The position numbers and the translations under genes were made by a program. Source: Sphagnum compactum (taxonomy: Eukaryota). Taken from it: 64,000 nt of DNA. The stretch lies in the NCBI GenBank assembly GCA_965153455.1, contig OZ234493.1:34028213-34092212 (forward strand). The letters are read 5' to 3'. Positions 3,001 through 40,500 of this stretch are shown here, piece by piece. Under the pieces are notes generated by a model. That model did no database searches. It saw only the letters and a list, made by a program, of their open reading frames with translations, and was not told the DNA's origin. Position 1 is the stretch's first letter. Each line of letters opens with the position of its first letter.

Positions 3001-4266
3001 AGCATGTGCACAGCTAAACTGAGCCGTTTCCTTTCCACTTGGGAGAGACCACCAGTTTCATGTGAGCACCCGATGCGGACACTCACCAGATCTTCCAAGT
3101 CCATCTCTGAAATGGATGCATCAACCCGGGAAAGCTTTTTGGAAAGAGGTAGCCGACTTGGAAGTTGCGAGAGAGCAGAATAGTAAAGAAGTTCGCGAAC
3201 TGTCAGTGATTCAATCAGTTCTTCATCTGGTCTCATGTATGCCTGCCATGGGCCCCAGAAAAACAAAACCAGACAACCTTTGATCATCATGATTCCTCAA
3301 TTCTGATCAAGAAATTCAAATGGATATTGAGATGCTCAAAGAAACAAGCTTTCTTGACACTGGTGATACATATGGAGAAAGAAAGAAAAGGGCCCGGGAG
3401 CTTACATATGTGCCATATGGAAGCTGTTGTCGGAAACCATTGAGCAGAATTTCTCCATACAATTTTGCATTCTTGGGAAGCTGGTCTGTTACAGATCCCG
3501 AATGAAAACACAACAGAAATTCAGCAGAAAGCAAGATTTTCCCACTAAACAGATGCAAATACAGACAACTCCAGATGACTCTGTCACCTCCAAGAAATGC
3601 CATTGTGTGTGCTTTCTTGCATTATAGAGCAAATGGAGTTGAGGAGGAATAAATGAATCCAACAAGCAATTTGTGATCTCAAGTCATGTGCATTCTGCAC
3701 CTACCTGCCAAAGCTTTCAACAAAGTTTTCTTCCCAGAACATGCAGGACCCATGATGGAGAGCACAGAACCCGGTCGAGCGAATCCAGTAGCACTCTTCA
3801 GTAGCTTTGTAGGAGCTTCTCCTCTTTTCCCACCATTCAATGTGACAGTCAGATCCCGCCATACAAGAGTTGCACCCTTCTCAGGTTTCTTTGGGTCCGG
3901 AGTTTCCATAGCATTACTTGGTGAGAACATTACAGCCCTCGGGATGTCCTGCAGGGTTGATGGTGGCACGGACATCATGGCAGATATATTGCTCTTTGAA
4001 ACTGGCTGATGGTCCTGCTGCTGCTGTGCTAGAAGAGGTAAGTACTTTGTGGGAGATTCCGGAGGCTGCATGAGCCGGTGGTGGCTTCCAGCTGCTGCTT
4101 GCAGATGGTCTCCGTCAGATGACGGGCACCGAATCTCATGCTCTTGCATTGTGGTGCCTGCTAGGCCTAATGGACTCCGACCTGGTCCCTGCTTTTTGTT
4201 TGCAGATTGTTGAACACTTGCAGATAAAAGGTCTGTTGCTGTTGTGGGTGATGATGCATCACCCAT
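1..4266 (-). CDS. ABCG half-size ABC transporter (NBD-TMD, WBC/ABCG3-like) with degenerate ATPase motifs; 3' end beyond the window edge
   Basis: Hand-spliced GT-AG exons: 3705-4266, 3406-3485, 2950-3242, 2486-2660, 2175-2288, 1902-2033, 1448-1639, 1123-1209, 646-924, 353-460, 1-198. The reading frame is continuous across junctions. Motifs: LVWRDLTV, ATGFARPGSVLSIMGPACSGKKTLL, LTVRELLYYSA, FPCPRLQNPTDYFL, YYWLRLLL, GYFRL..ELPKPVWTYP, GLLENEY, KWENVLILAGMAIGYR. Confidence 0.92.
2715..2845 (-). mobile_element. Short, decayed copy of the Penelope-like 3'-end repeat in ABCG intron 3
   Basis: gctcacaaagcatgtcagatcatc...gaatagcagtgacaatgagctgcca...cttcatcagctcc aligns by eye with 38252-38333 and 38969-39050. 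Confidence 0.7.
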
Positions 4267-5481
4267 CTTGGCAGCTGTTGCAAGAAAGAAAGAGAGAAAG
4301 AGAGAGAGAGTTCAATTTGAGAGGAAAGTGCAGAGCACTCCAAGTGAAGCAGAAGAAGAAGACTTGATTGCAAAACTGTCGCCTTCTACTTTGAGCATCC
4401 TGGCCACCAAATGCCCCAAGAACTTGTCAAGTCTAATGACAACAAGTTTGTGCAAGACTACAAGCATAACACATTTCACAACATCCGTTGGAGAAGGAGA
4501 GAGAGAGAGCGAAAGAGAGAGACAGAGACACAGAGTCACAAAAACATGCACATACACTGTGTGAGAGGTCTTGTTTTTCTACAATGCTAGCAAACTTTGT
4601 TGTGGGTGTCTTCTCGCACACAACATCATCACAGCAAGCAACTGACACCCACTACAAAACAAGAAGAGTACAAGCTCATACCATGTTGTAAAACAGCAAC
4701 GAAGCTCACACAACAGAAAGAAGCAAGAAGAAGCAGAAGAACAACACAGCACTAACAGCAGGAGAAAAACACGGCACTAACGACAGCTTTCAACACCTTG
4801 CAATCAAAGTAGCAGAAGAAGAAGAAGAAGAAAGAAGTTATTGCTGCAGAGACATACCCATTATAGCCGCCGCTGCCGCCGCCGCCTTCTTCAACAGTCC
4901 GCTTGCAGTTTGCCACCTTTTGTATATTATATCGAAAAATGGGGGTGGAAGGAAGGTTCACGAACTTTTTTTGTTTTGTTTTTTGCTTTCAGCTGAGCTG
5001 CAAAATGTGTTGGAGAATCCTCCTTTCTTTCAAGACACAAAAAAACCACTCAAAAAATGAAGCTCACGTACTATATAAGTGGTACTAGTAGTCCTAGACT
5101 TCTTCCTCCTCCTCACACCAAAACAACTTCATCTGCAAAACAAAACAGTGACCCACTTCAGGAACAGAAATACAGCAGCTGTTGGAGTGCAGCTGCATGT
5201 TTGCATGGACTGCAGTGCTCAAGCTACAAAGTCAAGGAACAGGAATCAAACAAACAATGCAGCTGGCTGCTTATAACAAAAAAGCCAGAGAAAAACAGGG
5301 GGGTGAAAAAAAAAGATAAAAGATGCAATGGTAGCTACAACAAAATTCCCCAAAGACACAGAGAGACGAAGAAGAAGAAGAAGAAGAAGAAAGAATGATA
5401 CAACAGTAGCAACAACAACTTTCCACAGAGCAAAAGAGAGAAAGAAAACTGATGCAACAGTACAGAGGTGGCAACAAAAAC

Positions 5482-5500
5482 AAAGAGAGAGAGGGAGAGA

Positions 5501-5553
<53 letters not shown>

Positions 5554-5560
5554 AGAAGAA
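5482..5560. repeat. (GA)n/(GAA)n microsatellite within the SSR-rich upstream/5' UTR region of the ABCG gene (about 4280-6060)
   Basis: Direct reading: gagagagagggagagagagggagagagaga... followed by gaagaagaag. Confidence 0.95.
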
Positions 5561-7684
5561 GCAGTGCTCAGCTGATGCAAAAGTGGGAAAAACAAAATTT
5601 GAGAGAGAGAGAAGAACAAGAAAGAAAAACAAGAACAAGAAGCTGATGAAGCAAAGTGGCAAAAAGAATAAGATTCCTGAGAGGGAAAAGCAGCAGCAGC
5701 TGATGCAGCTTGCAACCAAAATTCCTTACCAAAAATGCTTGACAACACGGCAGTAGTAGTAATTATGAAAAAACTGTTTCTTCTTAGACTTCTACCAACT
5801 CCTCCTCCTCCTGTCAGCTGCTGCTGCTGCTTTGCAGCTTGCATGCACTTGTTGTACCCTCCTCCTACTTCTCCTGAGTCTGCTTTCCTCCCAGGGCTCC
5901 TAACTCACCAGTGTGCAGTGAGATTTGTGTATGTCAGCAGCAACAGCAAGCAACAGCAGGCATTTTTCTTCTTGTTCTTGTTCTTGTCCACAACTAGTGT
6001 GTTAGTTAGTGAATCTGGAAATTTCTCCTCTCCCCAGCAGCAACAACAAACAACAAATAACAATACTGTCTCTCTAGCCTAAACCCAAAAACCCCTTTTT
6101 TAATTGAGAATGTGTTTTTTGGCAATTTTACTTCAACACTTCTCTTCTCTCTCCAAAATCTTCTCTTTGATGAAGAGTGGCATATTTTCCATATAATACC
6201 ATTTGGTGTCTTTCCCAATCCAATTGTGCATATTCTACTCATTGAGGATTGATTTAGATCTTTTTTCTTGGGGGTTTTTTTTTTTTTTTTTCCTTCTTTT
6301 TTTGGGGTGGGTTGCCTTGCTTTTTTGGCATTTGATCCATCATCCAACAAGAGGAATGATGGGATGGAAGAGGGTGAGTCGGTGGGGGTGGAGGGGGGAA
6401 GAGAGGCTGGGCTGTCTGCAAGCTTCAGCTAGGTACACCATTTGTAGGAGTGAATAGAGATTTGTTTGTTTTTTGGGGTTTTCTTTGGTAGAGTAATAAA
6501 AAAAAATAGTTGTGAAGGTTTGATGACACTCTCTGAATTGAATTCAACACTGTGTGAATTGAATGAAAGCTTCCCAACCCACCCCCTCATTATGGCTCAA
6601 CTATTAAGAAACTCAACTTTGAATTGCAAATTTCCATTTCCATTTATTGAACTTTTCTACAAACCTCCTTCCTCCAATACCTCAACTCCTCAAGGTTTAT
6701 ATAAAAGAGGGAGATTAGAGAGAGAGAGAGAGAGATGAGATGCTATAGCAACAAAAAGTTGATAACAATAGTGGGTGGGACTTTGGCCAAATCCCCATCC
6801 CAAGAACCAACCCAAATTTTGGGCAAATTTGAAAATGTTTTTCGTTGTCAATTCGAATACCTACTAATTTCTATGCTGGAATCATAACAAGATAGAGAGA
6901 GAGAGAGAGAAAGTGGAAATCCCTATTTGATTTGAGGCAATTGGTGCTAGTCTGAAATATCTGCACCTTTCCTTCAAGGAAGGAGGAGCAGTGTTTTTTT
7001 TTTTTTTTCTTTTTCCCCACATTTTTGAGGTGTGTGGGTTGGTGATGATCCACAAGAAGACTTTGCCAAATTTGTCTAAATATGGCGATTTTTTTATTAA
7101 AAAACAATCCTCATAATGCGGTTGATTTTGGGCCATATTGTTTCCCCCAAAAAAACTTGGCTTTGTATATGTTGCACTGCCTTCTTATTTGTTGCCAGGA
7201 TGTGAAAATTTGCACAAAAACAAGAAAAACAAAAACACTAATGGGGAGGAGGGGAGGACTATTTTGTTTGCAAGTTTGGGTTTCAATTTTAAGTTAGCAA
7301 TTTTCGAATTTATGAACAGATAGATACATATTAAATATTTTTTCAGAATTATTTTTTGCTTCCTATATAGGCTAGCCAAGGGTTTTGCAATTGAAAGCAT
7401 GGCTATCAATTTGCAAGAAAAATGGGGCCTCCCCACCCTCACTCAAGAACATAGAGTTTGGGTGATCACTATTAAATGCACTCACTCGGTCACAATAGCA
7501 ATGGGACTCTTTTCTTTTTTTTAAATGAAAAAAATTCACCACATGGTAGGTAGGTCAAACAAACCCAAGTCTTGTGAAACACAAGTTACAACACTTGTGG
7601 AAGGGTGGCCTGACTATTGTTGCAACCCTAAAACCAGCACCTACATGAATGGGTTACCCATGGTGAAAACAAAACCTCAAACTG

Positions 7685-25872: not shown

Positions 25873-27049
25873 TCAAAAAAATTTAGTCAAAATGGTTGGG
25901 TCCAAATCGATTGTCCAAAATGGCACTTTGGTCAAGTTGAACATGGGGGCAAAAAAACCATAGGGGGTTTTTTTTATCGAAATTCCCAATCAAAAAATTT
26001 ATGATTTCTTGTAGTGATTTGAAACCATAAGATGGTTTCCATCATGTGTTGCCCATAACCCATGATCTCCTAACATATATGGCATATTCTCACCTACTGC
26101 CACTGATCCTAAAAAACTAATTTCACAAAATAATCTTAGATCAACATCTAAACCATATGATTGACCATCTTTTCGATCCTTGACCTTTATTGACCCAAAT
26201 GTAATAGATTTCACTTGGGCCGCCATGTTTATGATTAGGGCAAACCTAACCATGCAAACCTAGCCTCCATGGTGTTGGGTTGGCCTTGAGTTGGCTTGGT
26301 GGCTGAACATTTGTTGGCCACACTTTTCCCCTTTTGGCCTTTCCCAAAACCTTGGCCCCTACTAACATTGGTGTTCCATGACTGGCCATGTTATAATTTT
26401 GGATGAAGTGTAAAGCAATGATCGGCATTTTGTTCATATGCATTACAATAGGAACATGAATGGCTGGGATTAAGGTTAAAAGTTGTGGCCTATGGTGGAT
26501 TGGAATTTATTTTTTCTTGTGAGGCCCACCATACCTCCAACATTTTTTTTTTCCACCTTGTTTTGTCGAATAGGATGTGAAACCACCACCTGAATCGAGT
26601 TTGGCCCCCTTGGCCTTTGGTGGTGTAACCTTGGTTGGCTAACTATGTTGGTTAACATGTGTCAGAAAAAAAGACACATGTTAATCTCTTGAAATAATCT
26701 CAACATATTAAAATGAAATAACACATGTTTACATTTGTATGAAATTACATGTAAACATGTGTATGAAATTGGGAAGACACAAAGATTCAATTTTTTTTTG
26801 AAAGAACACAAAGATTCCAAAATACATTGAAAAATTAAACATATTTGTTTTTCTTTCGATATCTTAGGATTCATAAGGTTATTTTGAAACATTACAATTT
26901 GTAAAATGTTTATTTAAAAAAAATTCTAGTTTGGAATCAACCTCTAATAAATTTGTAGTTTGAAATTGTTTTTTTGTACGACCTACGATTATAGCCCATC
27001 CCACCTAAACCAGCTATGATGAAATCATCGTCACTAAAATAAATGACTA

Positions 27050-30000
27050 TGGATTCAATTTGTTCTTTTCAAGGTCAAAAAATTTGTTGTCGTATCCAAA
27101 TTGTTCTTTTGCTTCCAATGTATGGGCCATGCACTTTGCTTCAGTGGAAAATAAATAAATTATTGTTTGTCTTTTGCTAGTCCAACTTCCAACTCCCAAG
27201 GATAAAATAAAAATGTATCCAAAGGTGGATTTTGTGGTGTCAATGTCATTAGCCCAATCTATGTTAGAATACCCATGACATATTATATTAGTTTTGAGTA
27301 AGGGATTGAGATGTGAATTTCTTTGTAAATGAGCCCATGAGTAATTGAAGTTCTTTTAAGGTAATGCATTATTCTTTTTATTGTAGACCAATGAGTAACT
27401 CTAAGGTTAGCCAAATATTGGGATACAACTCCCATAGAAATATCTTGCAATATCTTGTTGTGTACAAACCGTTGCATACATCAAACTCCATACTACGAAT
27501 TTATAAGGAATTTTAGCCATCTTTCGCCTTTGTTCATTTGAACTAAGAGATTGGTTTTTAGTTAATTTTAATCTAGTTTCATGTGAAGTGGAAATTGGTT
27601 TATAATTTTCCATGCCATATCTTTTTAATACATCATTTATGTATTTAAATCAATTTAGTTCCATCATATGTAGTTGATGATTCCTTTTAATTTGGAAACC
27701 AAGACAAGATTTATTTCCCCCATGTTAGTCATTTGAAATTCTACACAAAGTAAAGTTTTTGTTTGTGATAACAATTCTTTACAATCATTTGTGATTATAA
27801 TATAATCATTTATATATAGGGCTATGGCAACAAATAATGTTCCCACTTTTTTCACATAAATATTTGTGTTTGCCATATTTTTCTCAAAACCATTTTGAAG
27901 TAAATAGGTATGTATGTGGGCATACCAAGCTCACGAACTTTGTAATTTAAGTCCATACAAACTTTTATTTAGTTTACAAACAAGATTATCCTTCTTTGTT
28001 TGTATGAAACCTTCAGGTTGTCTCATATATATATATATATCTCTCTCTCTTACTCAAGTTCACCATTCAGAAAATTATTTTTATGTCTATTTGATGGACC
28101 TCATAATCATTTTCAGCTGTAAGGGTCATTAAAATTCTATTGGAACTTAATTTTACTACTAGTGAGAAAGTTTTAATATAGTCAATACTTCGAACTTGGG
28201 AGTAGCCTTTTGTCATGAAATGAACTTATATTTGTCAATTTGACCATTCAATTTAAGTTTAATACAAAAAACCCATCTACAACCAATAACATGTCTACTA
28301 GGAGGCAATTTTGTTAAACTCCAAGTTTTATTTCTAATTAATGATTTATACTTATCTTGGATAACACTATGCCATTGAGTAACATCATCTCGTCCCAAAG
28401 CCTCTTTTAAGGTTTCCAGTAGTGCTTGATGTATGTCAATTGTAGCTCATTATATATACTTATGAATAACTTATTGAATCTAGGAATTGTTGAGATGATT
28501 TTGATGTTCGAGATGACCATCAAACTAATAAATATAATATAATGATATAAAAGGCTAGTTTCATCCATGTCGTCAAATTGGTCATCTTCTTGATTTTGGG
28601 AAAAATATATATTTTAGAATCAATATGATGAGCAATTGTAAAAAGTAATTCTAGAGGAATAACCTCATTTTAAGTTTGTGAAAGTACTACAAGGTTTACT
28701 AGAGGATTGATGAAAGGCATATGGTTTGGTGGACTTACTAAAGGTTCTTGGTAAATTTTTATTAAATGTCAAATAGATTCATTTGGTTCTTTGTTGACTT
28801 TATGTGAATATCTAGAATTGTTAGTTGATTTGATTTGATTATTAATAGATAATTTCTTTGCTCTAATTATGTTATGTAATGGAGGGTTTTCATTAAATAT
28901 GACATCCTTACTAAGTATTATAGTTTTTGAAAAAATGTTATATAATCTATAAGCCTTAGCAATATCATTATACGCACTAAAATGCATTTTTGACTTTTAA
29001 AGTCCATTTTTTTAATACAAATCTTTGGGTATATGCACATATGCATCGCAACCAAAGATCCTTAAATGAGACAAGGAGGGTTTTATACTTGCTCATTCTT
29101 CTTCAAGGGTCACTATCCCATCCAACACATTACTCAATTTTAAATATAATTTGTTGTAGATATGGTTTCAACCCAAAAAGAGTTTGGAAGATTAACAAAA
29201 TTTATCATACATCGTGCATTTTCAACCAAGGTTAATTTTTTCCATTTAGCCACTCTGTTTTGTTCTAGAGTATAGGTTGTTGTCATTTGTTTTAATAATT
29301 CCATTTTCTTTACATAATTATTTAAATTGATTAAAAAATATTTTCCACCACTGTCACTTTGGATTATTTTAATTTTTCTTCCTATTAAAGGTTTTTATTT
29401 CAGCTTTGTATATTTAAAAATAATCAAAAACTTTAAATTGATATTTCATAACATAAGTATAAGTTTTTCTTGATTTATCAACAATAAAGGTTAAGAAATA
29501 CTTGAATCCTCAATGTGATTAGGTTTGCATGGGTCTGTAAACATCCAAATGCACTAGGTTTAGTAGAAAGTTAGCTCCTTGACCCCCCCCATTTTGAAAA
29601 TTTGCATCTTGTTTATTTATGGTATACATAACTTGGACAAAATGAAATTTAGGAGGGTGTTTAAAATATAAAATTTAAACATTATTGTTGATGCATTAGT
29701 TTCATCTTCTGCACTTGATTCTTATTGACAACATTGGTTGTCTAAAAACAAGTTTTAATTTGATCTCATATTTCTTGTGATGTTGTTAAGGATTTAGCAT
29801 GGACAAATTGATTATATTTCATGCATTAAAAGGAGATTAGCTCTTACTTTTGAACCTTTTATACCCCAAGCAACTTGATTTTTTTATGGGATCTGCAGGT
29901 CTTGTAGTAGAACCATTGACACGATCCCATTGCTCTTCTCGACGGAGAATCATCTCCATGCAAGGAGACCATGTTTGATAATTGCTACTGTTGGATCTAT

Positions 30001-30291
30001 CGAGAAAATGTTCTAACCCAATATAATTAGCCATATGATGAGTACTAGGAAACACTTGTCTCCTAATACTTACCAAGCTTTGATACCACGTTGAAATACT
30101 CATGAAAAGCAAAGATTCATTAAAACAGATCCTCCAACCATAGACGCTCAAAATACTCTTAGGAGTTTCACCCACCATGCGTTTTCAATAGTTCTTGGGA
30201 GTCATAGCTCTTGGGAGCAGTTATGTTCCTTCCTAACTAAGTCTCTAAACTAAGTGTCCTTTCAAACCTTATACTAACTTATTATTTAACA
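27050..30291 (-). mobile_element. Degenerate Ty1/Copia LTR retrotransposon (gag-INT-RT-RNaseH relics)
   Basis: PBS TGGTATCAAAGC (30077-30088, tRNA-iMet type). Gag-like NYQTWSPCMEMILRREEQWDRVNG; post-integrase AKAYRLYNIFSKTIILSKDVIFNE; RT fragments NKTWSLTKLPPSRHVIGCRWVF, ALYINDYII, IPYKFVVWSLMYATVCT; RNaseH WTSKRQT..FSTEAK. Many stops and frameshifts. The 5' LTR limit (about 30092-30291) is tentative and no 3' LTR was seen. Confidence 0.88.
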
Positions 30292-31428
30292 TCTGAACCT
30301 GACTTGCTCTACATCATGTACTACAAGTACAAACCTACCACTCGGTGAAGATGAACTCCCTGAGCATGTGTTTAAACATACCTCCTTTTTTCTTGATGAT
30401 GGCAAGAAGGCCCATGGATGTCAGCAGGGTCTTATTTTTCCTGGGAAGTTCAAGGACAAGGTAGCCATTGTGATAAAAGAGCTTCAAACTTAACTTGAAA
30501 AGTTTGATTGCCCTTCTTCTTGACAAAGGAGCTTTTCAAGGGTGAGAAGGGATGTCTTATAGCACATATGAATGAGCTTCTGTCATTTGCCTTACCACAT
30601 CAAGGTGATTCCATTCTTTTCACCATACTTGTTCTTGGATCCTTTCTGGGACGCCTACAACTTGTGGATGGAGGTCCAGGGTTTGATGATTTCTTCCACC
30701 TTTGGCAAAGGAGCATAGTAGGACTAGGGTTACTAGGAGTTGGAGCCAGCTAATGGTTGGCTAGCTAGGAAGGCCACTGCCGCATGGTACAATGTGTCAC
30801 ATGTGGTGAGGCTGCCGTTTTTTCTTCCTGTCCTGCATCAAGGGGCATTAGGTTCTTTGGTGTTTTACAAGGGATGTCTTCCACATGGAACTTGCCTCCT
30901 TGATCTCTCTATTTCCAGTACCTGTGCTTCTCTTGCCTTTTCAGTTGCCCTCATTTCAGCAGTCCCTTCACATGGGGTTCTTCATTGGCAACCAGAGCAG
31001 ACTTTTGTGACTTCCTGTTGGTTCCTGAGCAGATGTTTGCCTACTCCAGTCCACTCACATGGCTTCTGCATAAGCTTTGCTTAGCTACTCTGAGCGATGA
31101 AGTTGGGCAATTGGACTTGGTTGTAAGCCCATTCACTTTGGCAGGGCTCCTGGGGCTTCATTTCACAGCAATTACACTTCTGCCAGTAAGGATTTTGGAT
31201 ACTGGCCAGATTGTGACAGCGGTGTTGGGTATAGGTGTGCAGCACACATATCGACAGGCTTTAGCTTCTTGGTTACAGCAGTCTTGTTTCTTACCACAAG
31301 CAAGGACTTACATGAATGGTTTACTCCAGACCAGCACTTATTGATGACTGGTTCCAGCTAGATGAGGCTTCACAGCCCAGCCTTGGACTGGCTTGCTCTT
31401 TAGCCTTTTTTGCATCTTTTGACAAGAA

Positions 31429-33751
31429 TATCTTTCATGAGAATAGAGAAATCTCCGTTCTCACGATGAAGAAGAAACAGCAAGGCTAACTCTTCCTCAG
31501 GAAGCCACAGAAAGAACCAAACAAGGGAAGACAAGAAACAAAACAAAAAACACACACCGGTATGAACAAAAGTGCCAGTCTCACACCTGTTCAGGGACCA
31601 TCAACAGTAGTATGTATGATAGTGACTTAACTATCACAACTTCCCCACTGACTTCATCAGCTCCCTACAGTGGGTAAAGGCCGGTGACAAGCACCATCCT
31701 GCGAACTGAGTTTCTGCTGCAATTCAGGAAGCAACGGGAAGACTCAGCCATACTACTGGCTAGCAACAGACACCACAACAAAGACCAGACAAAGAAACAA
31801 AGAAAGACAGAAAGGGAAAAGGAAAAAGGGAAAAGACAGGGAAAGACAAAAAACAAGTGGGCTTACAGAAAGCTCCCCACTTACATGACCCGAAGCAAAA
31901 TCATTCTGAAAATGCCAAAAGCTGAAATTCCAAAGAGGAATTCTTCTTTAAGAACCAACCCTCTAGTTCTCTTTAGAAGAACTTTTAAAGGGTAGCCTTT
32001 TGCCTTCAGAAAGACAATAAGACTGACCATCTGGAAGACAAAAAACTTCTTACAACTACAAAGTCTCAAGAACCTGTAAAATTGACTATTGATAACCCCG
32101 AGCTTCGCAGTCATTGAGATATTGGAATGAACGTGTGGCATTCTAATCATTTCAATACCTGCATACTCTGGTTGAGAGCGTTTGTCAAAAATGTCACAGG
32201 ATAAACCTTGAGGACTCTGGCTCACAGTTAGATCCAAGAAATTACAAGAGAAGCCTTTAGATGTACAATTCAACTCGCAAGAGGTTTTTGGGTATATGCC
32301 GCTACCAAAAGAGTCTTGGTTAAGGTACATGAAGTTCTCAAAATCTGGAAAATCTGGAACAAAAAGATCATCCACAAACCTACGAACCAAGGACAAACTA
32401 TGAAGCACAAAAGGACATGTGTTACTCTTCAAGAGACGCTTAATGAAATCAAACTCATAGGTGAAGAGATAGAAATTAGCCAAATAGACCGCACAATTTG
32501 TACCCATGGGGATACCAATGCATTGTCTATAAACACCCTGGCCAAAACAAAGAAACAAATTGTTTAATAAGAAATCCAGCCAAGAGATCAAATCTGAAGC
32601 CTCTGCAACTTTGAAGCTATGAAGATTTTCAAACAAATTGATCTCTGCTTTATTTTTCAGCCACAAAAACCTAAAGTTCAAAGCTGTTTTTTGAACCAAC
32701 AAAAACTTAAAACGACGAAGCTTCAGCATCCGATTAAACACTTTATTTATCAGAACTCTCATACGAGCTTTTAGATCCACTAGGTCAATTTTAGTGTATA
32801 GAGTTGAGAAATCAAAAGACTGCAACAGAAGTGGGGAGACCTTATCAATTTCAGATCTCGAACGATTAAGATTATTTATTACCTCCACCATTCCTGTAGA
32901 GTCATTGAGAATCCAACTACTATCACAAGGAACATCTGCTTTTTTGAGTTTAGACACCCAAAGGTCATTGACCGTAGGAAACATAGCATTGAAGAAAGAA
33001 CACAGCCACTTAGAAACATCAGTCAGAGAACTAGAGCTGGCTGCACAGATAAATCTAGGTTTAATTGGATTTTTACGAAACTTCCAAACTGCACAAAGAA
33101 ACGGGAGACGAGGGCCACACTTAACACCTTTAAAATTATGAGCCTTATTAAAAGAGAGATGAAAATTCAGAATATCAGATTGGGCAAGATTGGAGACCAC
33201 ATATGCACCAACAGGAGAATTAAGCTCAGAGAAAACAGAAGAAACATAAAACTTTTTACAAACAAACACAAAGTTGTTACAACATTTATCCATGTAAGTA
33301 ATGACAAAGGACCGTTGGAGAATCTTTAGGTGATCCAGATCTCCTAAAGGAACAGACAAAGAAGAATGAGAAGAGGTTTGAACCACTAAGGAAGCACGAG
33401 TCCTCTTCTGTACAAAGAAAAGAACTTTGGCCTTCCACTCACTTAATATCCCTTGAACTCCTAGAAGCTCTTCTTGCTTGTTGACAAACTTCTTAAGACC
33501 TTTATCAATAGCTTCTTCAATAGACAACATAGACAAGAAGCCACTTCTGAACTTAGTGCCTCTAGAAAACAGTTCAATTAGGCTGGGCCTTGAAAGGATA
33601 TTAAGGTTAGCAGAAATAACATGACCATGATGTGAATCAACAAAACTAGGGAAACGAAAACAAGCATAACCAGAGTGAATAATTTTATTAACTTGAGAAG
33701 CACAAACAGATCTTCCCAACGCCCCATAGCTGAAAAACTCTTGACCAGAAG
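31429..33751 (-). mobile_element. Penelope-like retroelement (Naiad/Chlamys type), 5'-truncated, with a structured 3' UTR
   Basis: Flanked by a 12-bp near-perfect direct repeat, ttttgacaagaa (31417-31428) and ttttaacaagaa (33752-33763). Contains the RT ORF and a ~450-nt 3' UTR ending in the GGAGATTTCTCT motif, which is shared with the short copies. Confidence 0.8.
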
Positions 33752-33830
33752 TTTTAACAAGAAGCAGGGGAATTTCTTCCTGCTTGCATTTAGGTGGGGT
33801 CCTAGAGACCTTGGTGGCCAAAGAAGTCAT
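31881..33830 (-). CDS. Penelope-like reverse transcriptase ORF (649 aa, intronless, no endonuclease domain present)
   Basis: Linker motif YAC...FVDSHHGHVISANL...LFSRGTKFR; DKG-like motif DKCCNNFVFVCKKFY; LP.L.AVWKFRKNP.KPRFI (RT1/2); SFDFSTLYT (motif A); long A-B insert; YRQCIGIPMGTNCAVYLAN (B); RFVDDL (C); NFLDL (E); thumb GVINSQFYRFLRLCS...KGYP. Confidence 0.9.
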   Translation of the reverse strand: MTSLATKVSRTPPKCKQEEIPLLLVKTSGQEFFSYGALGRSVCASQVNKIIHSGYACFRFPSFVDSHHGHVISANLNILSRPSLIELFSRGTKFRSGFLSMLSIEEAIDKGLKKFVNKQEELLGVQGILSEWKAKVLFFVQKRTRASLVVQTSSHSSLSVPLGDLDHLKILQRSFVITYMDKCCNNFVFVCKKFYVSSVFSELNSPVGAYVVSNLAQSDILNFHLSFNKAHNFKGVKCGPRLPFLCAVWKFRKNPIKPRFICAASSSSLTDVSKWLCSFFNAMFPTVNDLWVSKLKKADVPCDSSWILNDSTGMVEVINNLNRSRSEIDKVSPLLLQSFDFSTLYTKIDLVDLKARMRVLINKVFNRMLKLRRFKFLLVQKTALNFRFLWLKNKAEINLFENLHSFKVAEASDLISWLDFLLNNLFLCFGQGVYRQCIGIPMGTNCAVYLANFYLFTYEFDFIKRLLKSNTCPFVLHSLSLVRRFVDDLFVPDFPDFENFMYLNQDSFGSGIYPKTSCELNCTSKGFSCNFLDLTVSQSPQGLSCDIFDKRSQPEYAGIEMIRMPHVHSNISMTAKLGVINSQFYRFLRLCSCKKFFVFQMVSLIVFLKAKGYPLKVLLKRTRGLVLKEEFLFGISAFGIFRMILLRVM

Positions 33831-34189
33831 CTGTGAGCCTCACATGGACTTCATCACATGATGTAAGCTGAAACTTAAATATGTACAATGGTAATGAACT
33901 ATGGCATTGTGCAACTAGGATTGAAGCAAAGGCTCAGTTTAGAACAAGCTTTATCATGCCTTAGAAGTTTCTTGATGATAAAGCTTTCTCTCAGGTAAGC
34001 ATTCAACATGGGCATAGCAGGCATATTTGCCAGCCAATTTGTGTTGGCATGTTCCCTCTTTGTCTCTATATCTTGAGACCTCAATCTCAGAGGTCCTCTA
34101 GGTAGATGACTGAGCATCCTACAAGAAGCAACCCTGCAGTCATGCAAGGCCTCCATAGTCCAAGGTAATATATTAGAATGAATAAAAGA

Positions 34190-34460
34190 TGTGAATGAAA
34201 TTGAAGAAAGTAATCAAAAAGTTGTGTCAGCTCTGGCCAACCCAAAACAAACATGAGAATGAGTATGGTCATAAAGCATCAGATAATTATCTTTTGCCAT
34301 AAATGGCAGTGGCCAGGTGCTCTTACACTCCCACCAACTTCATCATCTCCCAATAGTGGGTGTAGGTAAAAATTTGCCCAGAAATTAGGACAAACAATCA
34401 CACATTTCAAGAAATATGTGAGAAGACTTGGCATGATGTTGGCTAGCATTCAAGACACAC
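34190..34460 (-). mobile_element. Short decayed copy of the Penelope-like 3'-end repeat in or near the PheRS-beta 3' UTR
   Basis: Shares aatgagt...gtcataa, ggcagtg, cttcatca.ctcccaa.agtgggtgtag and gaagact...tgatgttggctagca.tcaaga with the 38886-39198 copy. Possible TSD atat(t/a)agaatgaa(t/a)a(a/g)aaga at 34170-34189 and 34461-34480. Confidence 0.7.
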
Positions 34461-34538
34461 ATATAAGAATGAAAAGAAGAAGATATTGGAACCCTGTAAC
34501 AATAAAAGTCTACACTGTAATACAAAACTTGCTCAATG

Positions 34539-37500
34539 CTATCCAGACAAAAAGGGTTCAATAATCATCTCCACCGCTGAGCATGGATCTGTGATGTCAA
34601 AACGCTGCATGACCTACATAAAGAGACACATGATGGATACCCATGAGTTGACAAGCTTATAACCAGCCAGGAGGCAATCAACTGCAACAAACTATTTGGA
34701 AACAGGAACAGAAAACTAGATAGAGGAAATATGCCAACACAACACAATGTATAAACTAATCACAATACAACAGGAGTTATAGGGTGATCAGTGTTTGACC
34801 TCAGGGTGAACAATGCCAAAGGTCCCAATGCGAGACCCCTTGAACATAATGTTGGCTTGCCGTCCTGTGAAAAATTCAGGTTCCTGCCCCATACATGGAA
34901 AACTGAGTTAAATGGAACAGTGGTTGGCACAATTGACAATGGCAAGTACTTTATAAGCATGATACTTCCTTGGATCCCTCATTGTCCTTTATCCTGGATG
35001 GAAAGTCAAACACCTCATGCAATAATTTTCAGCATATAGCTTGCCCTGGAAAGTCGTCATTTCAGTCTTGTTCTCAGATGTTCAGCAGAACAACATGCTA
35101 AAATAGTATGTAATGAGCATCGTACTTGAGATGGGGTTATGTAATATCCATTGTCACTGTAGCTTTGAGTATTTTCATCAAACTCAACAACTGGGACACC
35201 CACCATCTCCATTAATCTGTCCACAAGTCCATGGATAACCTGTTTGTAACCCAGCCAAACAACAGATAATGTGTTCACATATATTTCAATGTAGCAAAAT
35301 AGAAAAGGGATGGGGTGAGAGTGAAGTACAGGAACCCACAGCCAACAAGAGCATGGAAAGAAACTGAGGGATTACCTCAAAACCTGAGTTAAGATTGCAA
35401 TAGAGAGCAGCAAGATGCCGATGGTTGGCAGCACCTACATCCTCTTCTGTATCAAGTCTGACGATATCAGACACCTCAAACAGCTGCCATGACAGATAAC
35501 ACTTCAGTGATTTCATGTTAGAGCTAAACAGCCTTTAAGTGAAGTTACTATACAATTAAGTAACAGGAGTTTATTGCAAGCATGTCAGTGTACTGATGGA
35601 ACCTTAATTGGCCGAGGTGAATCTTTGTTGTGACCCATTGTTTTCAATATTCCTGGCAGCAGACTACTGCGGACAACCTGCAATCCTCCAGCGGAGCTTC
35701 CTTTAGCATACAACAAACAGATATACTGTATATAATAGATATATGACAAGCCAAAACCACACCAGTAATATCAAGCCTACACATACTGTTCAAAACTTCC
35801 ACCATGCACTCTCTCTTACCTCGAATTCTGATGTTCGTGGATTGCCAACAATTACTGCTGTCTTTCCATTGTCTTCACGGTTCACCATTGCAAAATTCTC
35901 ATGATGTGAACCCAGAATCCATGTAACCACCTCCGTGAAGCCTGCCATGGCAATCTGCACCAATACAAAGATAGCAACATGCTTAGCTGAAGTTTCCCAG
36001 CCGTAAAATAGATCAGTTTGAAGTCATTTGCAACCATATGAATAAGATTTGACCAACCTGAGGACACTAGATCACAAATGCATTAGGGGAATTCTGACAA
36101 GATCCCATAACAACTCTCATCCAATGCAAGCCTGAGCAACACAAGTTTACGGTGGTGATCAACTGGTTGGCTGAGAGGAGGAGAATAGAGTCTTCACATT
36201 ATTACAAGTTTACAATAAAAGGAAGGTTAAGATGGTGAATATACCTCAGCTCGGACCAAGTCACTGAAATGGTTCAAAGGTTGCGGTTTGCCTTGTGTGT
36301 ATGAAGTTGGCACTGTTCTTACAATGTTGTTGTACCCATACGCTATGGCAACATCCTGTGACATTGTTGAGAAAACCCAAATTCTACTCAGCATAAGAAA
36401 TTTCTAGACATGGAAACAGCTTCTTTTGCATCACAATGTGAGATTTTCTTTTGGGTGTTCAGAACACAGTGGAGTTAACAATGACTTACCTCTGCCACAT
36501 CACATGGATGCAATATGTCACTTCTTGTGGGTGGCACCAATACTTTTAGTTTTGCATCAGACTTGACTGTTGCAGATAGCTGCATCCTGTTCAGCAACTC
36601 TGCCATCTGTTCGCCTCACATCCCCTTAGAATGAAACTGAAACCTTTTTAAGACTTTGACTGACCACTTCCAAAGAATCTGGCAATGGGACTGTAAAGAA
36701 AGTAAAATATGTCAGTTCACCTGTCAAAGGACAAGCGAATCTCTGGAATACTCTCCACCAAGTGCTCATTATTAAATATCCTCAAAAGTATTGAGATGAC
36801 TCCATACTTAGAATTTAAATCAACCTGAATAGAATGTAGGGATGACCTGACAAAGGTTATAAAAATCTGCCCAACTGACAAGCAACAGCAACATGTATGA
36901 TAGTGACCAGCTACCATAACATTCCCATTGACTTATTAGCTCCTTGGATGAGATGGAGAGCAATGGAAACAAATGCATGGATGGACAATTGAATCCAGTA
37001 ATGAACCATAAGGGGGAGGATCCCTCTCCATCCAGAGAGGTTTAGGAAGAAAACAGCAGCAAGACCAGAAGGAAGGGATTGAACTTCAGGCTTGCAAACC
37101 TTACTTTTAGGGCTCAGAACATGAGGATTAGGACCTATTCTACATAAGTGTAGATTTATCACCTCTGATTTTGTGACTACTACTTGACTTACCTTCTAAG
37201 TTATAGACCTCTCAGAAAGAAATATCTCCTTCATTATTTAGTATCTGCACACTTATTTGAATTAACCTCAAAAGAATTGAGAGATGGCCTGATAATAAGG
37301 TTACAGATATTTTAGATCTGACAGAATAGCTGCAACCAATTGGCAAGCATGGAAAGAAAGAGGAAATCCAACACTAAAGAAAAAAGAAAACAGGACCAAA
37401 AATAAAACTGAGAAGCAGTTTGAATGTCACTGACAGTCATAGACATGTTTAGGCACCTTTAATGCAGCATGCATGGTATTGACCACCTACCATAGTATCT

Positions 37501-40500
37501 AGGAAAGAATGAACTAAGGATATTGGTCCCTTCTCTTTCTGCTCATTGATTAACACTGGCCTAGCAGTGAAAAGGTTCCTCAATCCTCACAAACTCTCTA
37601 AGTTTTCCCAATGTCATCATCTTCTCAATCAACTATAGCATGGATGAAGGTAGGGACACCAACCTCTTGTGCTTGCAAAGAAACTCCAATAACACCATTG
37701 ATGGCGGATACATCAACTTCAAGTGAGCGAACTGAAAGATCTGGGTATAAATTTGATGTTCCATCTGGACTTACAACCTCAACAGGCTCAACCTCAAACT
37801 GTGGGGTGCTGTATTGAGAGAACATTGTGACCTGGTCCCAGCATATCACAGATTAGAGCATAGAGAGTCATATGCAATTGTGTGGTATTCAAGAGCATGT
37901 CACTGATGAACTGAACTCAAGGCACCAGACACTCTGCAACTAAAAACATTTTTCATACCATAGTGTTGAGGACTATTTTAGCTTTTGTCAAATCTGTTGC
38001 TGTGCACTCAATGAAGACATTTCTCGTCTTCAGGGTGATGGCTGAGTGTGCCCCATTGATGATAGGTGGCAGTGAAAGAACTCTCCTGTTAAAACAATCC
38101 ATTACCAGAACCAAATGTGAAGCAGCTGGCTGTCCAGACCCACATTCCATGAGGCAAATAGAACACAAACTATCTAGGAGATTGTAGAGAAATCTCCACA
38201 ACATTTTGGAGGTAACATGACAAGAAGTGCAGTCACAACCTTATGAGAGTTGCTCACAAAGTGTCAGACCATCACCTTCTTCATGAATAGCAGTGACAAG
38301 CTGCCATTTGTACCAACTGATTTCATCAGCTCCCACAGTGGGTGTAGATAAGTAAATAACGATCAGCCCAAAATTTTGGGCAATTTTGAGGCACATGGAA
38401 CAGACCAGACAGACCAGAACAACACTTGCATTTTTTAAGCCTTATCATGAGGAGAGGGAAGACCGAAAGACACGTAGTACTCACCTTTTGCTGTCATACA
38501 AGACAGGGTAGACAAGAGAGCTCTCAATGATGCTCAGAAACTTCTTCAGCTTCATGTCCGACTGCCACCACATACAAGGACTGACATAAGACAATTTTCT
38601 TACATGCTCTGAGCACTTTCAAGTGCAGTAATGGTGTACTCAAAAGGCAACACCCCAAGTCACTTGAAAGGAAAATGTCAAGGAATGATGAGAGGAAAGG
38701 ACCTTGTAAAATTCCATCAGCTCAGCAGCATTGAACTCATTTCTCTGCATTCAGAGGCAATTTTCTTTTAGGATACCTCACTAATGTGCAAGATCTGGAT
38801 TCAGACTTGGTCTGCATAGGGACTATCCCAGTCATGACAACAGCAACAGAAGGAGAAGTCAACCTCATTGGAGTCCAAAACTAAAGATCGATGAAGTTGC
38901 AGAGAAATCTCCACAACAACAATTAAAGGTAACACGACAATGAGTGCAGTCATAACCTCATGAGAGTCGCTCACAAAGTGACAGACCATCACCTTCATCA
39001 CGAACGGCAGTGACGAGCTGCCATGACTACCCACTGAGTTCATCAGCTCCCAACAGTGGGTGTAGATAAGCATATAATAATCTTCCCAAAAAACTTGGGC
39101 AAACCATTATACACAAACTGCGTCCTGAGTTTCTGTTGCCTTTCCGGAAGCAATGGGAAGACTCAGACGTGATGTTGGCTAGCACTCAAGAGACATTGTT
39201 GGAGTCCAAAACTAAAAATTGGGTGACCTTACCTGTTTCAAGGGAACAAAATTGATATCAGCTGGAGGTAGTGCCTGCAAGGAGCAAACCAAATGTCAGA
39301 CAGAAAGCTCCTCACAGATGGCAATTACTTGCTACCACTCAAACAGCAAGACTCCAGTGAGACTACTAACAATCTCAGACATCCTCCTAGTGAATTCACA
39401 CAACCATATCAAGGTGTTCTGCAACTCTTAATTTGTGTTGCAAATGAACTGTGACTACACAGTGAAATTCTCGACTGCAATAGCTTGCCTCATATGTGAA
39501 GGGGCCTTGAAGTGTATCCAGATCATGAGTTCCAATAGCTACCAAAGTCCTTTTTCTGTACAAATGAAGTAAAGTCATTTTACATGGAAATGATGCAACA
39601 CGCCTTCCTCAGAATTTCATTGCCTTACTCTAAGATTTAACCCAGTAAGATTAAGCTAACTTACTAAAGACTTCTGCAAGCTTAAGTTGTTTTCAGTGAA
39701 GAGCAGTACCGACAAATATTCTGGTGAAGTTTGTCTTGAAGATCAATGAAACTGTTGTACCGAGACTCAGTAAGTGTAACACCTCTCAACACCGCACACA
39801 CAACAAATGGCCTGATCAATGCTGTCTGTTCTCCTCCCAACATGAGTGAAGCAACATTTCCAGGTAAGATATTTTTCAACCCGAAAACTTTTTGGCCTGG
39901 AAAATCAACAAGCTAAAAAAGCTGAAATGGATCACCCACCTCAGGTTTCACAACCATTCTCTGATAAGAGTGTGTCAGGCTGCTTTTACAGCTAAAAGTT
40001 GGAACAGACTGCTTCTGGCCAAAAATGCGAAGTGCCCTTGCGATGCCTTCAAGGCACAAAAGGTCATATCTGCATCACAAAACAGACCTTGCTGATTTAT
40101 TTCAAGGGACAAGGATTCAATGTTGATTTGAGAAATGAGCTAAAGCAATAACTAGACTGCAAAGAAAAAAACACTGTCTTTTACTCTTTCCTAAACTTTA
40201 TCACATACATCCATCCACAGGGGGAGCACATAGGGATGTGACAGGAGAAACAGGGGAGAAGGCTTTGAGAGGACTGAAACAGACCGGTTGGCCGGCACAT
40301 CAATCTTATATATGATCTCCTCGTCTTCATCCTCATCTTCTTCATGGTCCAAATGCTTCTCCTTACGTACTATTGCCTTCTCAGTTGTCTGCCACAATCA
40401 ATCTACATGTGAGTACATGGCTGATGATTTCAACAAGATCCAATCATCATTGTGAACTAGAAAGTGGCAAGTGCTCCTCCATAGTTTGGGGAAATTACAA

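Follow-up and report, generated by a model that had tools for sequence, protein, structure and literature searches.

A 5'-truncated insertion of a probable Chlamys-type Penelope-like element, with a putative N-terminal nuclease in its longer copies, beside a PheRS beta-subunit gene in a moss genome

The minus strand of a 64,000-nucleotide stretch of Sphagnum compactum contig OZ234493.1 (the window, in whose numbering all coordinates below are given) carries at 31429-33759 what appears to be a dead-on-arrival, 5'-truncated insertion of a high-copy Penelope-like element (PLE), which by its features would be of the Chlamys type, with a GIY-YIG endonuclease (EN) N-terminal to the reverse transcriptase (RT). 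This reading, to which a probability of about 0.88 is given, draws on the repeat status of the copy, its truncation, its target site duplication (TSD), the domain order of longer copies of the family, the fold and the position of the RT in a phylogenetic tree, all of which were observed or computed. The clade of PLEs with an N-terminal EN was recognised by Craig, Yushenova, Rodriguez and Arkhipova in 2021 (PMC8557442), and a first-pass annotation, made from the letters of the window alone, had placed an intact 'Naiad/Chlamys' RT at 31429-33830; that annotation is followed up here.

The RT lies in a stop-to-stop open reading frame (ORF) of 652 codons, P0001 (31881..33839), and the runner-up across the whole window has 302 codons. 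At the base composition of the window (GC 0.366) the chance of a frame of this length staying open is about 8e-21. All the RT motifs quoted in the first-pass annotation were found in the translation, with residue numbers (Table 1), and its uninterrupted frame stands, with its length corrected from 649 to 652 codons; its word 'intact' holds for the open frame and for the RT catalytic residues D343, D490 and D491, all of which are kept, and fails for the N-terminal third, which is absent, and for the CxC motif, which is broken. The GxKF/Y and DK motifs follow the definitions given for PLEs in PMC8557442, and in a 50-row alignment of relatives (A4) K185 of the DK motif is invariant and D184 nearly so. 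Motif A is separated from motif B by 99 residues, and the insert that accounts for this spacing, corresponding in position to an insertion-in-fingers domain (IFD), is modelled by AlphaFold2 as a helix, a beta-hairpin and a second helix. The frame terminates shortly past the last thumb helices and has no additional C-terminal domain, as expected from the earlier statement that a C-terminal endonuclease is missing. The first cysteine of CxC, a column in which at least 90% of the 50 aligned relatives have C, is removed by a substitution at window 33667 (C58Y) that is private to this copy among 62 non-redundant copies of the family. Codons 1-27 are read-through into flanking DNA and do not belong to the element; the only upstream ATG (residue 4) falls within them, in frame, and residues 1-24 were modelled with a per-residue confidence (pLDDT) below 50. 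A sequence search of the PDB with P0001 gave no match.

That the element is repetitive is evident from the number of its relatives. A word-indexed search returned 417 relatives of P0001 and HMMER 5391 at E <=0.001, counted as representatives of 50%-identity clusters, and 468 of the 529 stretches obtained by a back-translated scan of metagenome contigs encode a P0001 relative. Copy number and full-length copies were sampled via such contigs, from which 79 loci were kept as a comparison set, reducing to 62 non-redundant copies at 99.3% identity. When window 26001-40000 was compared with these loci by blastn, homology was confined to approximately 31427-33759, with sharp limits at both ends. All alignments that reach the 5' end of the window copy break off at 33759, and eight other copies keep a mutual identity of about 90-95% over 240 nucleotides (nt) or more further upstream, where the window is unrelated to them (alignment A1). 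The upstream homology of other copies extends for 197, 378, 543, 606, 749, about 900, 968, 1124 and 1298 nt, and two loci, L001 and L027, reach about 600 nt further still, to a total of about 1900 nt. At its furthest point this homology abuts another element fragment in L027 and unrelated DNA in L001, and because the neighbours differ the point is taken to be where the element has its 5' terminus, its full length then being about 4235 bp. Of the span proposed in the first-pass annotation, the 3' limit proved nearly exact and the 5' limit about 70 nt too long.

The 3' end is equally well defined. The window element finishes in ...GAAAGATA at 31429, and 35 listed loci finish in ...TTCT(T/C)ATGAAAGATA, each followed by a different flank and none by an A-tail. 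At the 5' junction of the window copy the limit is ambiguous by 3 nt (TGT), and microhomology of this kind is usual where a truncated cDNA joins its target. The copy is bracketed by a 7-bp TSD, TTCTTGT (Table 1). A survey of TSDs, with a ceiling of 12 nt on the scored length, covered copies whose contig includes both ends, in all 25 rows for 19 distinct loci; a junction string of at least 4 nt was common to both ends in 20 of the 25 rows and one of at least 6 nt in 16 rows (12 loci). By eye the strings of L003 and L049 are at least 16 nt and 15 nt long, respectively, and the TSDs of the family run from about 5 to more than 12 bp. Truncation is frequent and its point differs from copy to copy. 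Variable 5' truncation and variable TSDs combined with a fixed 3' end are the trace left by target-primed reverse transcription. Since the TSD brackets the truncated copy, truncation took place during insertion, and the window copy would therefore have been dead on arrival. The first-pass guess that the endonuclease had been lost by 5' truncation is borne out both by this duplication and by the continuation of other copies upstream.

There is no pseudo-long terminal repeat (pseudo-LTR) at the window copy, and tandem-like structure in the family was seen in two loci only, L027 with a head-to-tail arrangement and L046 with an inverted piece. The arrangement at L027:2223-6720 is complex, with head-to-tail and nested pieces, one fragment abutting a copy that begins at the inferred 5' terminus, and it recalls the partial tandems described for PLEs. 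A subfamily of six loci (L022, L025, L026, L040, L075 and L079) carries, about 930 nt downstream of the first copy, a second copy of the segment matching window 33659-33759, of 101-123 nt and up to 224 nt. Other pieces, at L026:4184-5599, L040:3393-4808, L079:3813-4310 and L045:3803-4426, are 65-75% identical to the C-terminal coding part and 3' untranslated region (UTR) of the element, a level that would point to another PLE family, older or distinct, beside this one in the genome.

In full the element runs to about 4.2 kb, in which a single ORF of no fewer than 1031 codons lies between a 5' UTR of some 0.7 kb and a 3' UTR of some 0.45 kb that lacks poly(A). To judge from its sequence, the ORF would encode first a GIY-YIG nuclease and then a linker, followed by CxC and GxKF and, last, by a telomerase-like RT (bearing an IFD-like insert) and a thumb. 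At L012:575-3670 there is one frame, with two stops, in which the pattern VIYSV..LYVGQT..RF..H..PIE..ERKW..PRGYN is followed by SGCAC and then by the RT. Its first 404 codons (P0290) read ...GVNYVIYSVSNSRMLYVGQTCKSAFERFQEHIREAKR...FPIEKV...LERKWMSILHTFFPRGYN..., in which GIY and YIG motifs precede R, H, E and N; the nuclease residues R108, H112, E150/E176 and N192 are kept. The stretch from VIY to YVG is eight residues long (SVSNSRML) and contains no cysteine, a single cysteine occurs in the 85 residues upstream, and no CX2-5CxxC motif was found upstream of the nuclease core of P0290. The predicted proteins of other moss copies, P0296 and P0299, are continuous in one frame from the nuclease through ...FWSPPLVAWKYVKTSGQEFF...SGCACFRFPSFVDS.HGHV...RGTKFR, and both read SGCACF at CxC; the family majority is SGCAC...GHV...RGTKFR, i.e. 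CxC and then GxKF. The upstream in-frame GIY-YIG domain and the intact CxC for which the first-pass annotation had recommended a search were thus located, the former in the longer copies (L012, P0296 and P0299) and the latter in the family majority, the window copy itself having a broken CxC. The 5' UTR, of about 680 nt, contains an internal duplication of about 170 nt (L012:575, L001:3984-4059 and the 5' parts of L027).

The nuclease was traced through more distant proteins. In a phmmer search, residues 55-205 of P0290 matched the N-terminal parts of proteins of about 1000 residues at about 30% identity, and a 24-sequence alignment of those relatives (A3) has the consensus VIYAI...YVGQT..SA..RF..H....PLE....RE.FW....P.G.N. 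The A3 profile matches the GIY-YIG catalytic domain of I-TevI (1mk0, 1ln0) with E 2e-6, and hhalign of A3 against P0290 gave a probability of 99.95% and E 2e-38 over 328 columns. Among 16 relatives tested, nine had a Pfam GIY-YIG match (E <=0.01; above the curated cut-off in six of the nine), lying within residues 18-221 and always N-terminal to RVT_1. Hidden Markov models cut from A3 detected the RT in 282 of 291 proteins, and among these 282 the nuclease was N-terminal in 106 and C-terminal in none, the remaining 176, in which none was seen, being mostly fragments. These figures, with the longer copies in which GIY-YIG precedes CxC, support the earlier assignment to the N-terminal-GIY-YIG clade. 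A protein search for longer, fused forms of the N-terminal part yielded one distant protein, and a close-relative search with the nuclease region yielded 25 same-family fragments at 79-100% identity and no named plant homologue.

An AlphaFold2 model of the window ORF, built with alignment A4, had a mean pLDDT of 89.6 and a predicted template modelling score (pTM) of 0.88. The 15 best Foldseek matches in the PDB were all telomerase reverse transcriptase (TERT) structures, from Tetrahymena, human, Candida and yeast (E 1e-11 to 4e-6), and when the top 999 Foldseek chains were realigned with VIA-align the first 17 were again TERT, with Z scores of 13.9-19.0 over 326-498 aligned residues. Twelve of these 17 alignments cover model residues of about 25-652 and the other five end at 551-588, so that the match takes in both the thumb and the CxC/GxKF region, which lies N-terminal to the fingers; TERT also has an insert at the IFD position. 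Long interspersed nuclear element 1 (LINE-1) ORF2p, R2 and group II intron RTs reached Z scores of 13.0 or less and were aligned over residues 190-636 only, a ranking that argues against a LINE or group II origin and agrees with the kinship of PLEs and TERT. The RTs of PLEs are sister to TERT, and PLEs are the closest mobile relatives of telomerase. The likeness is one of structure, sequence identity being 11-13%, and TERT is a single-copy cellular gene whereas the moss family is a multi-copy mobile element with a nuclease and TSDs.

Within the N-terminal-EN clade the first-pass annotation had left Naiad and Chlamys side by side; the clade holds, and the assignment can be narrowed to the Chlamys type at the expense of Naiad. 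Naiads are described (PMC8557442) as having two cysteines that belong to a CCHH motif within the GIY-YIG core and a CX2-5CxxC finger upstream of it, as reading DKA in the DK motif, as having a shorter IFD than Chlamys and as inserting at (TA)n targets; the cysteines, the finger, DKA and the (TA)n targets are not seen in the moss family, which reads DKC. Between motifs A and B the median distance is 86 residues in 43 two-cysteine relatives and 99 in 22 relatives with zero or one core cysteine, the latter being the spacing of the moss RT. A quick maximum-likelihood tree of RTs was computed from 97 rows and 398 columns, with SH-aLRT support values, midpoint rooting and no outgroup. The two-cysteine and unclear rows (labelled Naiad-like) form a clade of 61 rows with support 98, and the window RT lies outside it. 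It is sister (support 99) to an ENA cluster at 53% identity (P0004, P0133 and P0134) and falls within a 24-row set (support 97) that has no two-cysteine member and is composed of 17 rows labelled Chlamys-like for having fewer than two core cysteines, three unclear rows, the three of the 53% cluster and the window itself; it includes proteins that EukProt names as those of Amoebidium parasiticum. Constraining the window and its sister to join the two-cysteine rows, a grouping chosen after inspection of the tree, costs 50.0 log-likelihood units, with a p value of 0.0196 in the approximately unbiased (AU) test. Among named relatives the nearest (P0012) comes from a fern, Ceratopteris richardii; this hypothetical protein is 53% identical across 66% of the query. 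Rfam found neither a hammerhead ribozyme nor rRNA in the window (gathering threshold), in window 27000-39000 (E <=1) or in loci L001, L002, L012 and L027, which fits Naiad and Chlamys and argues against the endonuclease-less subgroup of Chlamys known as PLE-X. By its features, then, the family would be of the Chlamys type. A Protein Atlas query with the RT returned clusters that were either unnamed or PLE-like (RVT_1, HTH_animal, DUF8422), which are a lead only.

The window copy is young. Of 2320 sites, 47 (2.0%) depart from the majority base among the 62 copies, and there are no insertions or deletions; 33 of these differences are common to other copies and 14 (0.6%) are private, which makes it the 11th youngest of 63 copies by private differences. 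The 34 differences that fall in the ORF are distributed 7:5:22 over the codon positions and give a ratio of non-synonymous to synonymous polymorphism (pN/pS) of 0.28, a value that would mostly reflect subfamily differences fixed while the lineage was active and is no test of selection on the window copy. The private changes in the ORF comprise six synonymous and seven non-synonymous substitutions and no stop, and the corresponding totals for all other copies combined are 255, 686 and 28. About 3.7% of single-base changes give a stop, so that the probability of seeing none is 0.27 for 34 changes and about 0.6 for the 13 private ones; the open frame therefore needs no selection to explain it. 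The recent activity claimed in the first-pass annotation is supported by the low private divergence and the absence of insertions and deletions, and not by the open frame on which that claim had leaned.

We infer the following history. The GIY-YIG nuclease, as in the relatives of the family, would nick chromosomal DNA with a stagger, and the RT, by target-primed reverse transcription, would prime on the nick and copy the RNA of the element starting at its 3' end. When synthesis ended early or the template was lost, 5'-truncated copies with short and variable TSDs would result. The window copy would have stopped about 1.9 kb short, leaving it without nuclease, 5' UTR or a start codon of its own and hence presumably without function, and would have landed downstream of the PheRS beta-subunit exons, on the same strand. 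It would then have acquired about 0.6% of private changes, one of which removed the first CxC cysteine, its frame being open owing to youth and not to selection.

Several observations weigh against this account. Pfam finds nothing in P0001 even at E <=1, and so no RVT_1, and in P0290 it makes no GIY-YIG call, its sole match being a chance one to WD40 (E 0.098); the assignment of a nuclease to the moss family is accordingly a predicted one that passes through profile comparison with relatives. None of the 79 loci has an intact full-length ORF, the longest frames (803 codons in L002 and 714 in L001) belonging to copies that are truncated or frameshifted, and any autonomy of the family today would be putative. 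In the three longest copies (L001, L012 and L027) the stretch ahead of GIY holds no in-frame ATG; their start codon may sit in an upstream exon, and no such exon was found. The tree was labelled by a proxy, the cysteine content of the nuclease, with no named references, canonical PLEs or TERT among its rows, and the AU grouping was a post hoc one. The (CA)n or (C)n targets of Chlamys are absent from all 35 listed 3' flanks, most of which start with T or TT(C); that bias is, however, reported for 'many' and not for all Chlamys elements (PMC8557442). The 3' junction of the window copy is bridged by only 26 nt of one assembled contig from DNA run X1, and the 13 private ORF changes are too few to exclude some constraint.

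Four other explanations deserve consideration. The window ORF might be a working RT gene that lacks an endonuclease, as a domesticated PLE RT or as an EN-minus element that is active, with translation starting at the flank ATG or drawing on read-through transcripts of the PheRS beta-subunit gene. Its 652 open codons, intact catalytic aspartates and in-frame ATG would suit such a gene, as would its position just downstream of the PheRS exons on their strand, the occurrence of family sequence in RNA libraries and a private ratio of 7 non-synonymous to 6 synonymous changes that is somewhat lower in non-synonymous changes than that of other copies. We nevertheless regard it as quite unlikely, given that the copy is one of hundreds and has a TSD and a random truncation point, that the ATG and the rest of residues 1-27 are unrelated flank modelled with low pLDDT (<50), that C58Y has removed a cysteine conserved in at least 90% of relatives, that about six in ten copies with so few private changes would be open anyway, and that the RNA contigs, of 75-184 nt, come from the repeat body and are not assignable to this copy. 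A window copy without a nuclease in a non-seed plant, from a family with CxC, would also be expected if the family were PLE-X, known from Selaginella and Chara, a subgroup to which Craig et al. tied BlastP hits in mosses (PMC8557442). Longer copies that are 90-95% identical at the DNA level carry an in-frame GIY-YIG domain, however, the window and four long loci are devoid of hammerhead ribozymes, and the loci have no 28S ribosomal DNA (rDNA) at their flanks and a different unique flank each; PLE-X, from which the family was set apart on the published description of that subgroup, is thus a very unlikely identity.

An animal-type Naiad, brought in by contamination with invertebrate DNA or by recent horizontal transfer, would have the same domain order, and many of the database relatives do come from metagenome contigs. 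Against it, neither the two core cysteines nor the upstream zinc-finger motif is present in the nuclease, the RT falls outside the two-cysteine clade by the tree and the AU test, two DNA studies have contigs in which the element continues into the unique flank by the intron-rich PheRS gene, and the nearest named relative is the fern protein; we consider it highly improbable. The 5' truncation and variable TSDs are LINE-like, and a LINE-type non-LTR retrotransposon or a group II intron-type RT might be invoked on that account. Such an origin is scarcely conceivable for an element that has no poly(A) or A-rich tail, whose longer copies have GIY-YIG in place of an APE or restriction-like nuclease, whose best structural matches are TERT over a longer span than LINE-1, R2 or group II RTs, and whose frame holds the PLE-specific CxC (as Y-A-C in the window copy), GxKF and DK motifs. 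The dead-on-arrival insertion of a Chlamys-type family is accordingly preferred.

The setting of the copy is that of an ordinary chromosomal locus. The flanks hold exons of a multi-exon gene for the beta subunit of phenylalanyl-tRNA synthetase (PheRS), at 35793-38240, on the same strand as the PLE copy and just upstream of it, together with a decayed copia-type LTR retrotransposon, all pieces of which are in short broken frames (Table 1), and for this reason the locus is taken to be chromosomal and eukaryotic. The PLE copy may lie in the last intron of the PheRS gene, in its 3' UTR or beyond it. A Protein Atlas query with a PheRS exon gave no match. Eight DNA runs of one organism (three studies) hold 0.59-0.69 of the sampled words of the locus, and six RNA libraries labelled moss or plant metagenome hold 0.33-0.36, which is consistent with the moss host inferred in the first-pass annotation. 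The possibility of contamination was addressed by contigs from two DNA studies, one of 848 nt (X1) and one of 4128 nt (X7), which begin 34 nt inside the element and continue into the 5' flank, linking the 5' junction to the unique flank by the PheRS gene. With reads placed at >=98% likeness, word depth, a rough indicator and not a copy number, was 9.7 (X1) and 29.9 (X7) in the unique flank, 160-5900 in the element body and 5100 (X1) and 27000 (X7) in the 3' UTR, rising toward the 3' end as 5' truncation predicts. In both DNA runs the 3' UTR at window 31508-31795 is covered 4-5 times as deeply as the ORF body; either many extremely truncated copies or a 3' end common to another repeat would account for this excess. 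The contigs from RNA libraries all lie in the repeat body and none in the flanks, and they indicate that family sequence is present in those libraries and speak for neither expression nor silence of the window copy.

Among lesser features of the locus, a 146-codon frame on the plus strand at 30904-31341, adjoining the 3' end of the element, has a weak Peptidase_M50 match (E 3.4e-4, below the curated cut-off) and could be a host exon or a chance frame. Short matches of 32-69 nt to the 3' UTR at 36877-39184 were set aside as probably CT-rich low-complexity sequence, and an apparent joint from 31607 to 34330 in three runs, with 21 nt on its short side, was treated as a repeated short word.

Table 1. 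Features of the element copy and its surroundings (window coordinates; residues are those of P0001)
Feature	Position	Residues	Strand	Basis or remark
5'-truncated Penelope-like copy	31429..33759		minus	blastn homology limits; ~2.33 kb of ~4.2 kb full length
Upstream TSD copy, TTCTTGT	33757..33763		minus	7 bp; last 3 nt (TGT) also match the element
Downstream TSD copy, TTCTTGT	31422..31428		minus	directly outside the element
27 flank codons, open in the same frame	33760..33839	1-27	minus	window diverges here from 8 mutually agreeing copies
Element-derived part of ORF, 625 codons	31884..33758	28-652	minus	linker with CxC and GxKF, fingers/palm with IFD-like insert, thumb
CxC position	33660..33668	58-60	minus	Y-A-C here; C-A-C in family majority
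HHGHV		69-73	minus	translation
RGTKFR, GxKF/Y motif	33546..33563	93-98	minus	relatives' consensus G.KFR
DK motif, DKCCNNFVFVCKKFY	33246..33290	184-198	minus	reads DKC, not the DKA of Naiad
RT motif A, SFDFSTLY, catalytic D343	32796..32819	341-348	minus	translation, A4 alignment
A-to-B insert at IFD position	32526..32792	350-438	minus	spacing and model
RT motif B, QCIGIPMGTNCA, contains GIPMGTNCA	32490..32525	439-450	minus	translation, A4 alignment
RT motif C, RFVDD, catalytic D490 and D491	32367..32381	487-491	minus	translation, A4 alignment
Stop codon	31881-31883		minus	ORF end
3' UTR, CT-rich, ends ...TTCTCATGAAAGATA, no poly(A) tail	31429..31880		minus	3' end conserved in 35 listed loci
PheRS beta-subunit B3_4 domain exon	37956-38240		minus	domain match
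PheRS beta-subunit B5 domain exon	36478-36615		minus	domain match
PheRS beta-subunit core domain exon	35793-36023		minus	domain match
Decayed copia-type LTR retrotransposon	27667-30184		minus	all pieces in short broken frames
copia piece, RVT_2	27667-27930 and 28070-28225		minus	
copia piece, integrase SH3-like	28772-28996		minus	
copia piece, gag-like	29840-30184		minus	

Comparison with the known groups places the family close to Chlamys. As described in PMC8557442, Chlamys elements likewise have CxC followed by GxKF, a variable third residue in the DK motif, a long insert between motifs A and B and no canonical hammerhead, are frequently 5'-truncated and dispersed through the genome, and measure 3.3-8.2 kb, a range that includes the 4.2 kb estimated here. 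They differ in that the EN-bearing hosts listed there are green algae, Mesostigma, Chlorokybus, Chara and the slime mold Physarum, whereas the present host is a moss-like land plant, and in the (CA)n/(C)n target, in place of which the moss family has flanks starting with T or TT(C) and TSDs of about 5 to more than 12 bp. The window copy has no pseudo-LTR, and PHD, SAP or Josephin accessory domains were not seen in the moss family. With PLE-X the family has in common a non-seed-plant host, CxC and a Chlamys-type RT; PLE-X is set apart (PMC8557442) by the lack of GIY-YIG, by canonical hammerheads and an N-terminal CxCX1-8C extension behind an intron, none of which has a counterpart here, and by its targeting, in Selaginella, of one 28S rDNA site, the moss flanks being dispersed. 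The Naiads of invertebrates agree in the permuted domain order, CxC, IFD, absence of hammerheads, 5' truncation and high copy number (PMC8557442). The canonical PLEs (Penelope/Poseidon, including the conifer Dryad, and Neptune) also have a PLE RT with GxKF and DK, GIY-YIG and 5' truncation, but their nuclease is C-terminal and their hammerheads lie in pseudo-LTRs, whereas the moss frame ends after the thumb (PMC8557442, PMC9033089). The same C-terminal GIY-YIG sets Nematis and Hydra apart from the moss family.

What has been reported from land plants is limited. The relevant parts of PMC8557442 mention the EN-minus PLE-X of two Selaginella species and a few BlastP hits in mosses, hits that may be truncated copies like the one in the window, and the corresponding parts of a 2022 review of land-plant transposable elements mention conifer Dryads and EN-minus PLEs only (PMC9033089). 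A full-text literature search for PLEs together with moss, bryophyte, Physcomitr- or land plants, which did not cover Repbase, Dfam or the supplement of PMC8557442, returned no description of the family. The first-pass suggestion that the lineage is possibly undescribed is in line with this search, although the 2021 text does mention those few moss hits, and the family is probably an undescribed member of a described clade. There is about an even chance that it is the first EN-bearing (N-terminal GIY-YIG) Chlamys-type PLE from a land plant, still active in a moss very recently (copies in the hundreds, private divergence <=0.6%), with relatives at 53% identity in a fern and in the ENA cluster, non-microsatellite targets and variable TSDs.

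The window locus itself is ordinary, a dead truncated insertion beside a housekeeping gene, and standard annotation would leave P0001 as a hypothetical protein and the family overlooked. If the wider reading is true, embryophytes would have inherited the permuted-domain PLE lineage vertically from streptophyte algae, and in seed plants it would have been lost or gone unnoticed. A recently active, genome-wide, EN-bearing moss family with fern relatives would fill the land-plant gap left by the 2021 paper, and it would offer a plant system for studying PLE integration, including the choice of target, 5' truncation and the role of CxC.

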